In this document: in pieces, positions 36,822-39,570 of the stretch
Layout: each line of letters opens with the position of its first letter
Position numbering within the stretch: position 1 is the stretch's first letter
NCBI GenBank assembly: GCA_021146305.1
Contig: GCA_021146305.1_4336.1
Direction: 5' to 3' (one strand)
DNA: 43,091 nucleotides
Source of the DNA: a phage
Program-made: the position numbers and the translations under genes
The notes under the pieces: generated by a model
The model's database searches: none
Seen by the model: only the letters and a program-made list of their open reading frames with translations
What the model was told of the DNA's origin: nothing

Positions 36822-36967
36822 CAATGTTTGTATTTAGGACCATAGTAACCATGCTCGCACTGTTACTCGGCGCGGGAATAGCTGCGATGTTCTGTTACGG
36901 CCTGTTCTTTAAGTTTGTTGGCGTTGCCGTTCTCGGAGGAGCGTTTATAACCTGGGTTCTGCGCTCA
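36818..36967 (+). CDS. micro-peptide, membrane
   Basis: 49 aa, two hydrophobic segments; ATGA coupling on both sides. Confidence 0.35.
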
Positions 36968-37251
36968 TGACCCCGGAAGGCAAGATTCAGAAATACGCAA
37001 AAGAGCAATTCGAGGCCATTGGCGGCCTCGTTCGTAAACTTTCGTACGAGGGGCGCTCCGGCGCCCCTGACCTGCTGGTAATTCTCCCCGGCGGCATCGT
37101 CTGGTTCGTCGAGGTTAAGAAAGACGAAAACACGAAGCCAGACACGCACCAGTTACGTGAGCATGAGCGGATGCGTAAACGCGGTGCAAATGTTTTTGTC
37201 GTTGGTTCGTTCAAACAGGTTGACGACCTAATAGCGAACTATTATAGTTAA
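36967..37251 (+). CDS. VRR-NUC domain nuclease
   Basis: 94 aa; PD-(D/E)xK core GAPDLLVILPGG...VEVKK typical of VRR-NUC. Confidence 0.6.
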   Translation: MTPEGKIQKYAKEQFEAIGGLVRKLSYEGRSGAPDLLVILPGGIVWFVEVKKDENTKPDTHQLREHERMRKRGANVFVVGSFKQVDDLIANYYS

Positions 37252-37281
37252 TCACACACCAACAATATAAGGAATTGAGAA

Positions 37282-37473
37282 ATGAAACACGAATATGACC
37301 GTAAACCAGCACGTGACATCGTACCGGGTGACATGATTTTCAACGTTAAGACCCGCCAGCCTGTTGCCGTTGATACTGTGTTCGTCGAGTCAAACGGTAA
37401 ACTGGTTATCGAAGATGTAACTGGTAACGTTACGGCGTTCGGGCGTAAAGAGCTGGTGCTGGTGGCAAAATGA
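37282..37473 (+). CDS. hypothetical protein
   Basis: 63 aa; AGGAA RBS. Confidence 0.45.
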   Translation: MKHEYDRKPARDIVPGDMIFNVKTRQPVAVDTVFVESNGKLVIEDVTGNVTAFGRKELVLVAK

Positions 37474-38153
37474 TTGTCTGGTCATTGTTTGACGGTTCGG
37501 GCCTTATGGCCCAACCGTGGGCAGAAGCGGGCCATACTTGCTATTGTTTCAACTACGACGGTGCCGACCACGGCGACTACGCGCGATTGGGCGCAAAAGT
37601 TGAACACGAGAACATCCACTATATAAACGCGTGGATTGATAATAAGTTCGACTTCGAGGTTTCGCCAGATATTATTTTTGCGTTCCCTCCTTGCACAGAT
37701 TTAGCCGTTAGTGGTGCGGCGCATTTCGAAACGAAGCGTAAGAAGAACCCAACGTTTCAGGTAGAGGCTGTTATCACATGCAAAGTGGCGGCACGCCTGG
37801 CTAAAAGGTATAACGTACCTTATATGATTGAGAACCCAGTTAGCGTCCTCTCGTCTTTGTGGCGTAAGCCCGATTATGTGTTCAATCCTTACGAATACGG
37901 CGGCTATCTACCGGAAGACGATACGCATCCAATGTTCCCTGAATACATAAAACCCCGAGACGCGTACCCTAAAAAGACATGTCTTTGGACGGGTAATGGT
38001 TTCGTAATGCCGGTTAAGTCAGGTGTTGCCGTGGGTGATGGGTATTCTGACCGGCACAACAAACTTGGTGGTAAATCAGTGCGGACAAAAACAATCCGCA
38101 GCCTTACTCCTCGGGGTTTCGCAAAAGCAGTTTACGAGGCTAATCATGTCTAA
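37470..38153 (+). CDS. compact DNA (cytosine-5)-methyltransferase-like protein
   Basis: 227 aa; motif I LFDGSG, motif IV FAFPPC (candidate catalytic Cys), motif VI ENP; shorter than typical C5-MTases with no obvious target-recognition domain. Confidence 0.5.
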   Translation: MIVWSLFDGSGLMAQPWAEAGHTCYCFNYDGADHGDYARLGAKVEHENIHYINAWIDNKFDFEVSPDIIFAFPPCTDLAVSGAAHFETKRKKNPTFQVEAVITCKVAARLAKRYNVPYMIENPVSVLSSLWRKPDYVFNPYEYGGYLPEDDTHPMFPEYIKPRDAYPKKTCLWTGNGFVMPVKSGVAVGDGYSDRHNKLGGKSVRTKTIRSLTPRGFAKAVYEANHV

Positions 38154-39570
38154 GTTTCAAAGGCGCGAATATCAGAAGCTCATGACTTCGTTCATGCTAC
38201 AGCATCCGCGCTGTAATATCTGGTGCGGCATGGGAGGGGGCAAAACCTCCTCAACTATGTGGGTGCTTAATCGCCTGTTTCGCAACGGGCAGCTTACAGA
38301 AGATGACCGCGTGTTAATCCTCGCCCCGTTACGTGTTGCGTCCGGTACGTGGCCCGCTGAACAAGAGAAATGGCAATTCCCTTGTCTGCGTGTCGTAGAT
38401 GCAACTGGTTCGGAGAAGCGCCGCATCGCAGCGCTGGAGTCAGATGCTAACGTGGTGTGCACTAACTACGAAGTTATCGAGTGGCTAATTGACTACTACG
38501 GCAAAGACGACTGGCCTTTTACGGTTATCGTTGCCGATGAAAGCACGAAGCTTAAATCGTTCCGCAGCCGTTCGGGTGGTAGCAAGCGGGCAAAGGCGCT
38601 CAGCAAGGTTGCGTTCGGAAAGGTTAAGCGTTTCATCAACCTGACAGGCACACCGTCACCAAACGGCCTCAAAGACTTGTGGGGTCAGAACTGGTTTATC
38701 GACGCTGGCGAGCGCCTCGGCTCTTCGTACACAGCATTCACCGACCGCTGGTTTAACTCGGTACAGAAAGGTAAATCGGCCATGGCCCGCGAGTATCATG
38801 CACGACCGGGTGCGGATAATGAGATTCATCAGAAGATGAAAGACATCAGCCTGACCATAGACCCTGCCGAGTGGTTTGGTTGTGAAGCGCCTGTTATCGT
38901 ACCGGTGGAAATAGACCTGCCGAAGAAAGCGCGTCAGGCGTACATAGATATGGAGGAGAAGTTATTCGCAGAACTGGAGAGCGGGGAAGTTGAAGCGGCT
39001 AACGCTGCGGCGAAGACCTCAAAGTGCTTGCAGATTGCATCTGGTGCTGTATATGTATCCGGGCCAGACGGCGAAGCAACCAAAGAATGGGAGAAAGTGC
39101 ACGACACGAAACTGGATGCGCTCGAGTCGATTGTTGAGGAGTTGCAGGGTGCGCCGTTGCTGGTAGCCTATCAGTTTAAACACGAACTGGAGCGTATCCT
39201 TAAGCGATTCCCACAGGCACAGGCGTTCGCCAAAGGCGCTAGGGGGAACAAGCAGATGGAAGCGTGGAACCGTGGGGAAATCGAGATTTTATGCGTGCAT
39301 CCTGCGTCAGCCGGGCATGGTTTGAATTTACAGGACGGGGGTCATCATCTGGCGTTCGTCTCGCAAGGCTGGAACCTTGAGCACTATTTGCAGGTTGTTG
39401 AGCGCATAGGCCCAGTCCGCCAGAAACAGGCGGGTCACGAGCGCCCGGTGTTCCTTTATCACATCGTTGCTAAAGACACTCTGGACGAGGTTGTCGCCGC
39501 GCGTACCGACGAGAAGAAATCGGTACAGGAAGAGTTGCTTAATTACATGAAGAGACGAGGTAAGAAATGA
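38146..39570 (+). CDS. SNF2-family (DEAD-like) helicase
   Basis: 474 aa from ATG 38146 (GAGG RBS); Walker A GMGGGKT, DEST box, LTGTP motif; the track ORF starts upstream at 38023 in the same frame. Confidence 0.75.
   Translation: MSKFQRREYQKLMTSFMLQHPRCNIWCGMGGGKTSSTMWVLNRLFRNGQLTEDDRVLILAPLRVASGTWPAEQEKWQFPCLRVVDATGSEKRRIAALESDANVVCTNYEVIEWLIDYYGKDDWPFTVIVADESTKLKSFRSRSGGSKRAKALSKVAFGKVKRFINLTGTPSPNGLKDLWGQNWFIDAGERLGSSYTAFTDRWFNSVQKGKSAMAREYHARPGADNEIHQKMKDISLTIDPAEWFGCEAPVIVPVEIDLPKKARQAYIDMEEKLFAELESGEVEAANAAAKTSKCLQIASGAVYVSGPDGEATKEWEKVHDTKLDALESIVEELQGAPLLVAYQFKHELERILKRFPQAQAFAKGARGNKQMEAWNRGEIEILCVHPASAGHGLNLQDGGHHLAFVSQGWNLEHYLQVVERIGPVRQKQAGHERPVFLYHIVAKDTLDEVVAARTDEKKSVQEELLNYMKRRGKK

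Follow-up and report, generated by a model that had tools for sequence, protein, structure and literature searches.

The experimental anchor for the very small DNA cytosine-5 methyltransferases (C5-methyltransferases) of phages is the Dcm protein of phage K42, which shares 95.4% genome identity with KarlJaspers/Bas06 (10.1101/2023.08.16.553469). All the K42 mutants that escape the retron Ec86 disrupt the 711-bp dcm gene, and expression of K42 Dcm is toxic only when Ec86 is present. LC-MS (liquid chromatography coupled to mass spectrometry) found high levels of 5-methylcytosine (5mC) on the multicopy single-stranded DNA (msDNA) with wild-type Dcm, and low levels with the C82A/E128A/K175A/K176A mutant or an empty vector; this quadruple mutant also loses the capacity to trigger the retron. 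The mutated residues had been chosen by superposing an AlphaFold model on the DNMT3A structure 6F57, and K175 and K176 were assigned to substrate binding by the authors, who report that 34 of the 35 Ec86-sensitive phages in their collection encode a Dcm of this type (preprint 10.1101/2023.08.16.553469, published as Wang et al., Cell Rep 43:114857 (2024)). Later papers cite the phage Dcm as the trigger of Retron-Eco1. Here we compare with this system a gene found at positions 37,470 to 38,153 of a phage DNA of 43,091 nucleotides (NCBI GenBank assembly GCA_021146305.1, contig GCA_021146305.1_4336.1). This whole stretch, hereafter the window, is a complete or near-complete genome of a Kagunavirus-type siphophage (Guernseyvirinae). 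Our analysis indicates that the gene very probably encodes an active, S-adenosylmethionine (AdoMet)-dependent DNA (cytosine-5) methyltransferase of the compact phage Dcm-like family.

The gene bas06_0055 of KarlJaspers, of 711 bp and annotated as 'Dcm-like C5 cytosine methyltransferase', encodes a product that matches the window protein over its full length with 57% identity (E 3e-97), and residues C82, E128, K175 and K176 of K42 Dcm align with C75, E121, K168 and K169 of the window protein. At 236 amino acids (aa) for K42/Bas06 and 227 aa for the window, the two proteins belong to one family and one length class, although the former come from Drexlerviridae, with another gene neighborhood, and the latter from Guernseyvirinae. 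The work on K42 Dcm, together with the alignment to its Bas06 ortholog, therefore establishes the family experimentally as DNA C5-methyltransferases. Formation of 5mC was measured by LC-MS for K42 Dcm, and from it we infer the activity of the window protein. That the latter is a compact DNA C5-methylase is supported because its catalytic residues are conserved, because its predicted fold resembles those of DNMT3, M.HhaI and CmoX, and because a 57%-identical member of the family makes 5mC. The gene and its elements are the following (residues numbered from the ATG; TRD, target-recognition domain):

37470..38153, + strand: compact Dcm-like DNA cytosine-5 methyltransferase, 227 aa, ATG start.
37485..37502, + strand: motif I, L6-F-D-G-S-G11, predicted AdoMet-binding loop, placed by hhalign on 'SLFDGIATG' of DNMT3A.
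37683..37700, + strand: motif IV, F72-P-P-C75-T-D77, with the predicted catalytic nucleophile Cys75.
37830..37838, + strand: motif VI, E121-N-P123 (GAG AAC CCA).
37932..38078, + strand: variable cassette, residues 155-203, a candidate for determining specificity; its hypervariable loop falls where canonical enzymes have their TRD.
37971..37979, + strand: K168-K169-T170, in the place where canonical enzymes have motif VIII (R-x-R).
38097..38129, + strand: R210-S-L-T-P-R-G-F-A-K-A220, motif IX-like C-terminal element before the last helix.

A preliminary description of this DNA had pointed to LFDGSG, FAFPPC and ENP in the 227-aa open reading frame (ORF), and all three are read directly from the sequence, FAFPPC at residues 70-75 with the TGC codon of Cys75 at 37692-37694. 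Motifs I (F7-D-G-S-G11), IV (P74-C75) and VI (E121-N-P123) come in the canonical order, with PCT as a variant of PCQ and ENP as a variant of ENV. The catalytic cysteine that an aligned model should contain is there too: C75 falls on motif IV of both DNMT3A ('SPCNDL') and M.HhaI ('FPCQAF'). These motifs are not the product of chance, since F7, G9, S10, G11, P73, P74, C75, T76, E121, N122 and P123 are invariant among 30 relatives (59-96% identity). Conservation in the family was also counted over 76 representatives, with identity down to 34%. In this broader set C75, E121, P123, P140, Y166, W173 and P181 never vary (76/76), K168, T170, R210 and G82 vary once (75/76), and N122 (73/76), F72 (70/76), P73 (69/76) and T76 (68/76) follow closely. 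Motif I takes the form S-L-(F/Y)-D-x-(T/S)-G across the family. The C-terminal element is also well kept, with S211 in 69, P214 in 72, G216 in 74 and A220 in 71 of the 76 representatives, besides R210. At the end of strand 2 most members have Asp (72/76), and the window protein and its close relatives, the characterized enzyme included, have Asn. An invariant nucleophilic cysteine and an invariant glutamate in ENP argue strongly for a retained C5-methyltransferase chemistry.

The predicted structure points in the same direction. The AlphaFold2 model, built on an alignment of 30 sequences, is confident (predicted local distance difference test, pLDDT, 89.3; predicted template-modelling score, pTM, 0.88); it shows the three-dimensional fold of C5-methyltransferases and places a helix at residues 215-225. 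The nearest folds are those of DNMT3, M.HhaI and CmoX, and the top 25 Foldseek matches are all DNMT3A or DNMT3B (E ~1e-6, template-modelling score, TM, ~0.45), whose catalytic domains share 13-17% identity with the phage protein. Some DNMT3-like features can be seen in the sequence itself, namely SLFDG, PC-x-DL and a strand resembling 'xxxYFWGN'. The phage protein differs from DNMT3A/B in being about 60 residues shorter after motif VIII, in carrying lysines for the arginines of that motif, and in having none of the DNMT3 features that consist of a DNMT3L-type partner and regulatory domains. The reach of profile comparison is narrower: with hhalign, the alignment of the family profile covers only motifs I-IV in DNMT3A (E 3.9e-4) and only motif IV in M.HhaI, the latter with negligible probability, and the C-terminal half is not alignable by sequence to either enzyme (both sequences having been verified against the PDB). 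The protein is indeed much shorter than typical enzymes, as the preliminary description had stated, with its 227 aa against 327 aa in M.HhaI and 285 aa in the catalytic domain of DNMT3A, and with only 54 residues after W173 where M.HhaI has 162 after R165. Relative to the type II C5-methyltransferases (M.HhaI, M.HaeIII and E. coli Dcm; PF00145) it is some 100 residues shorter, without the large TRD, the QxRxR motif or the GN(A/S)V of motif X. The comparison with M.HhaI-type enzymes that had been proposed as a check is favorable for the fold and for the order of motifs I, IV and VI, and unfavorable for the PF00145 gathering score, QxRxR, the large TRD and motif X. To our knowledge, this architecture of about 227 aa is the most compact among C5-methyltransferases.

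The resemblance to CmoX led us to consider that the protein could transfer another group, such as the carboxymethyl of carboxy-S-adenosylmethionine (Cx-SAM), or perform some non-methyl chemistry on the C5 of pyrimidines, a possibility that the preliminary description had also raised. Cx-SAM is made by E. coli with CmoA. CmoX (PDB 8yf3) has an SPPC motif and an Arg350 in motif X that contacts the carboxymethyl group, and it is typically encoded together with a phage CmoA and the ligase CmoY (PMC12783734). The window protein has FPPC instead of SPPC, no canonical motif X in which an equivalent of R350 could be aligned, and 227 residues versus the ~333-350 of the full-size CmoX. Furthermore, no CmoA- or CmoY-like gene flanks the methylase in the window or in its annotated relative SZH-1, and the characterized homolog yields 5mC by LC-MS. 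We hence consider a different C5 chemistry very improbable. We give equally little credit to a DNMT2-like activity on the cytosines of RNA or tRNA, or to a modification at the level of nucleotides: DNA enzymes outscore DNMT2 in the fold comparison, it is the DNA part of msDNA that the homolog methylates, and the genomic context is one of DNA replication.

Several observations weigh against the assignment as an active DNA C5-methyltransferase and its proposed role. The window protein misses the gathering score of Pfam PF00145 (17.1 bits versus 22, over residues 3-100 only), and just 3 of 76 diverse members of the family reach this profile at E<=0.01. A search of NCBIfam with the window protein gave no match, and neither did searches of the solved structures in the PDB by sequence, whether run with the protein alone or with a profile of 30 sequences. 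The QxRxR of motif VIII is not recognizable, the sequence reading P-K168-K169-T170-C-L-W, with no arginines; the correspondence given above for this motif comes from the published superposition and from a resemblance to 'HRARYFWGN' of DNMT3A. The canonical motif X, GN(A/S)V, is not recognizable either. The CCWGG target proposed for K42 Dcm comes from an analogy with the host Dcm and from msDNA stem mutants in a dcm+ host (10.1101/2023.08.16.553469), and the window carries a cassette allele that differs from that of the characterized enzyme. Finally, the BASEL study saw no simple pattern between these methyltransferase genes and resistance to restriction. Since only 3 of the 76 members reach PF00145, the family stands apart as a divergent branch of the C5-methyltransferase fold and its members are not ordinary members of PF00145. 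The sub-threshold Pfam score, and the fact that the gene is dispensable in related phages (see below), would also fit a catalytically inactive relic or a DNA-binding regulatory protein that had retained nothing but the fold. Yet the nucleophilic cysteine, the glutamate of ENP and about 20 more positions are invariant or near-invariant in 76 members, and mutating four active-site residues of the homolog abolishes both 5mC formation and retron triggering, which makes such a relic hardly credible. An active enzyme is by far the better account of this protein.

What replaces the large recognition domain of the bacterial enzymes may be the cassette at residues 155-203. The family varies most in the segment that goes from 'GFxMP' to 'RTKxIRS', which has 11-55 aa and a median of 23. 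A close relative (P0004 in our set) shares with the window protein 96.8% of residues 1-154 and 95.8% of residues 204-227, and only 65% of residues 155-203. Two main alleles of the cassette, 'GYSxQHxKLGG' and 'DNPGWAKxGG', recur across unrelated phage lineages; the window has 'GYSDRHNKLGG', a variant of the first, and Bas06, a near relative of K42, has 'DNPGWAKTGG'. To judge from this pattern of variation, the cassette is likely an exchangeable mini-TRD that sets specificity. The claim that the protein lacks a recognizable TRD hence holds for a sizeable domain, and not for a short hypervariable segment at the TRD position. Because the cassette differs from that of the characterized enzyme, the target motif may differ as well. 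Site counts over the window do not reveal the target: CCWGG is not avoided (76 sites versus 60 +/- 8 in shuffles) and, leaving aside a depletion of GATC (see below), no C-containing palindrome stands out. It is conceivable, and we propose it tentatively, that this is the smallest natural scaffold of a DNA C5-methyltransferase, with a specificity governed by a cassette of ~25-50 residues (residues 155-203) that phages swap among themselves. If this were true, the motif methylated with the 'GYSDRHNKLGG' allele would not be CCWGG, the one proposed for the 'DNPGW' allele; the window's allele would protect against different restriction enzymes, and might escape sensing by retron Ec86. Such compact determinants of specificity could also be of interest to enzyme engineers.

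If the enzyme works like the canonical C5-methyltransferases, its homologs, Cys75 of the FPPC loop would attack C6 of a flipped-out cytosine while Glu121 of ENP would engage N3/N4; the methyl group of AdoMet would then pass to C5, and a beta-elimination would free the enzyme. The LFDGSG loop would hold AdoMet together with N28, an Asp in most family members, and D57, and K168 and K169 would stand in for the arginines of motif VIII. In this scheme the short hypervariable cassette within residues 155-203 would take the place of the large TRD of the bacterial enzymes, leading to a minimal architecture similar to that of DNMT3. The gene would be co-transcribed with early replication genes, so that phage DNA could be methylated as it is made. 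The most likely benefit would be protection from restriction enzymes sensitive to cytosine methylation; a cost is known in relatives, in which methylation triggers retron Ec86.

The family to which the gene belongs, PHROG 757, is large and already annotated, and consists of very small cytosine-5 methyltransferases of phages. The product of the gene matches phrog_757 ('DNA methyltransferase') with an E-value of 6.5e-87 over residues 1-226, that is, over its full length. More than 7,789 homologs are found in a collection of 5.8 billion proteins, nearly all of 225-250 aa, and an exhaustive HMMER search retrieved 1,984 cluster representatives at E<=1e-3, mostly of ~210-260 aa. Homologs occur in 1,526 of 50,697 phage records, among them Drexlerviridae, Dhillonvirus, Vequintavirinae, Krischvirus and Webervirus, as well as phages of Vibrio, Campylobacter and Arthrobacter. 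Many of these GenBank records already name the protein 'DNA cytosine methyltransferase' or 'Dcm-like C5 cytosine methyltransferase', so the novelty implied for a compact methylase does not hold. The orthologs of the Kagunavirus type are the same gene, with no difference of substance, and their annotations ('DNA cytosine methyltransferase') are computational only: that of Raoultella phage RP180 is 94.7% identical in protein, the locus DNA of Escherichia phages SZH-1, JSSK01 and phiWAO78-1 is 87-92% identical to the window, and in SZH-1 the gene lies, as in the window, between a 63-aa ORF and an SNF2 helicase. Searches of the literature for methyltransferases of Kagunavirus, Jerseyvirus or Guernseyvirinae yielded genome announcements only.

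The fold or sequence of the compact methylase also appears as a domain in longer proteins of uncultured phages (BFVD A0A6J5SE15, 1,397 aa; A0A6J5NPY6, 1,126 aa; A0A8S5V6E6, 1,154 aa), and two further matches in our family set are long as well (P0265, 563 aa; P0250, 414 aa). The long proteins with a methylase domain are annotated as helicase/UvrB-like or as DNA polymerase. This hints at a physical coupling of this type of methylase to replication proteins in some lineages.

At the locus itself, Escherichia phage vB_EcoS-22664BS2 shares 96% identity with the window over 36900-38200, a region that is matched in 444 phage records, mostly of Guernseyvirinae from Salmonella and Escherichia; at least 80% of it is covered at the DNA level in only 47 of these 444. 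The genes that surround the methylase are:

36967..37251, + strand: PD-(D/E)xK / VRR-NUC-type nuclease, 94 aa, upstream neighbor; phrog_93 'endonuclease', 8.3e-33.
37282..37473, + strand: conserved hypothetical protein of 63 aa (phrog_4879), between the nuclease and the methylase.
38146..39570, + strand: SNF2-family helicase, 474 aa, downstream neighbor; Pfam SNF2-rel_dom 6.4e-13, phrog_62 1.4e-166.

The VRR-NUC nuclease and SNF2 helicase of the preliminary description are borne out by these phrog and Pfam matches, with the reservation that Pfam VRR_NUC itself is sub-threshold (17.5 bits versus a cutoff of 23.8). The nuclease also matches phrog_5702, 'Holliday junction resolvase', at 2e-19, and contains GAPDLLV followed further on by VEVKK, a PD...ExK signature. 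The stop codon of the 63-aa ORF overlaps the start of the methylase (ATGA), and the helicase most likely starts at the ATG at 38146, with an 8-nt overlap with the methylase stop; the same overlap and the same gene layout are annotated in phage SZH-1. A family-A DNA polymerase lies further upstream of the methylase, and a Toprim primase follows the helicase.

This arrangement had been taken to fit a modification of DNA during replication, and the overlapping starts and stops within a replication operon do lend it weak support. Against it, in the Jerseyvirus Salmonella phage PVP-SE2 (NC_073186.1, 2501-5154, compared with 37282-39570 of the window) the helicase comes immediately after the 63-aa ORF, with no methylase in between. 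Also, in Drexlerviridae the methylase sits among small early genes and not beside those of replication. Absent from PVP-SE2 at this place and located elsewhere in Drexlerviridae, the methylase is accessory, an insert that does not belong to the core functions of replication. In PVP-SE2 the helicase is annotated as intein-containing (2,466 bp versus 1,425 bp in the window), so that the helicase locus is a hotspot for mobile insertions.

As a benefit of the methylase, anti-restriction is the conventional and, we infer, the most plausible one, and it fits an exchangeable specificity cassette. Of the 'minimal anti-restriction methylase' that had been suggested, the compact C5-methylase is upheld by conservation, fold and the 57%-identical homolog, and the anti-restriction part is a reasonable supposition, with BASEL offering no simple link. 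An active C5-methylase could alternatively have its main role outside restriction, either as a low-specificity, replication-coupled activity acting with the adjacent helicase or in the epigenetic control of expression or packaging. The overlap of stop and start codons between methylase and helicase would suit such a role, as would the lack of a simple correlation with restriction resistance in BASEL and, slightly, the finding that in uncultured phages the fold is fused to proteins resembling helicases and polymerases. However, related Jerseyviruses that keep the helicase and the nuclease lack the gene at this locus, the methylase of Drexlerviridae is away from replication genes, and a hypervariable, exchangeable cassette suggests selection on sequence specificity, as expected for the evasion of restriction. 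We therefore regard a main role outside restriction as unlikely, and protection from restriction as the better explanation of why phages keep this methylase.

The 63-aa ORF at 37282-37473, which the preliminary description had overlooked, is present in 448 phage records, all of the Guernseyvirinae type, with at least 88% identity and mostly 95-99%. It is far more conserved than its neighbors, has no detectable family outside Guernseyvirinae, and is translationally coupled to whichever gene follows. We considered whether its product could be a specificity subunit acting in trans, and rejected the idea: it is confined to Guernseyvirinae, conserved at 88% or more, and present in PVP-SE2 without the methylase, whereas the methylase is found in 1,526 records from many lineages that lack the 63-aa ORF. 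Being present in the methylase-less PVP-SE2, the 63-aa protein is not an obligate partner.

Two further observations concern DNA modification and sites in these phages. The tetranucleotide GATC is almost absent from the window (1-43091), with 6 occurrences versus ~145 expected under a maximal-order Markov model (z ~ -11.6), and CTAG is depleted too (27 versus 71). The scarcity of GATC suggests a strong selection against this site in the window phage, through Dam, MutH or GATC-specific restriction; no obvious Dam gene is found near the methylase. In addition, the DNA of phage S144 (Loughboroughvirus) resists all the restriction enzymes with G/C-containing sites that were tested, and its authors found no known modification gene; the capsid and portal proteins of S144 are related to those of phage Jersey, and its ORF63 is a 'putative methyltransferase' (PMC7432712).

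In kind there is nothing new in this gene, given that the family is widely annotated and one of its members has been characterized. Its meaning lies in what it says about the phage that carries it. Judging from our analysis, the Kagunavirus of the window probably carries 5-methylcytosine in its DNA. Such a modification bears on how this phage may evade restriction, and on how far type IV (methylation-dependent) restriction and retron Ec86/Eco1 would affect it. It bears as well on how nanopore and restriction data are to be read for phages of this type, for example in phage therapy.

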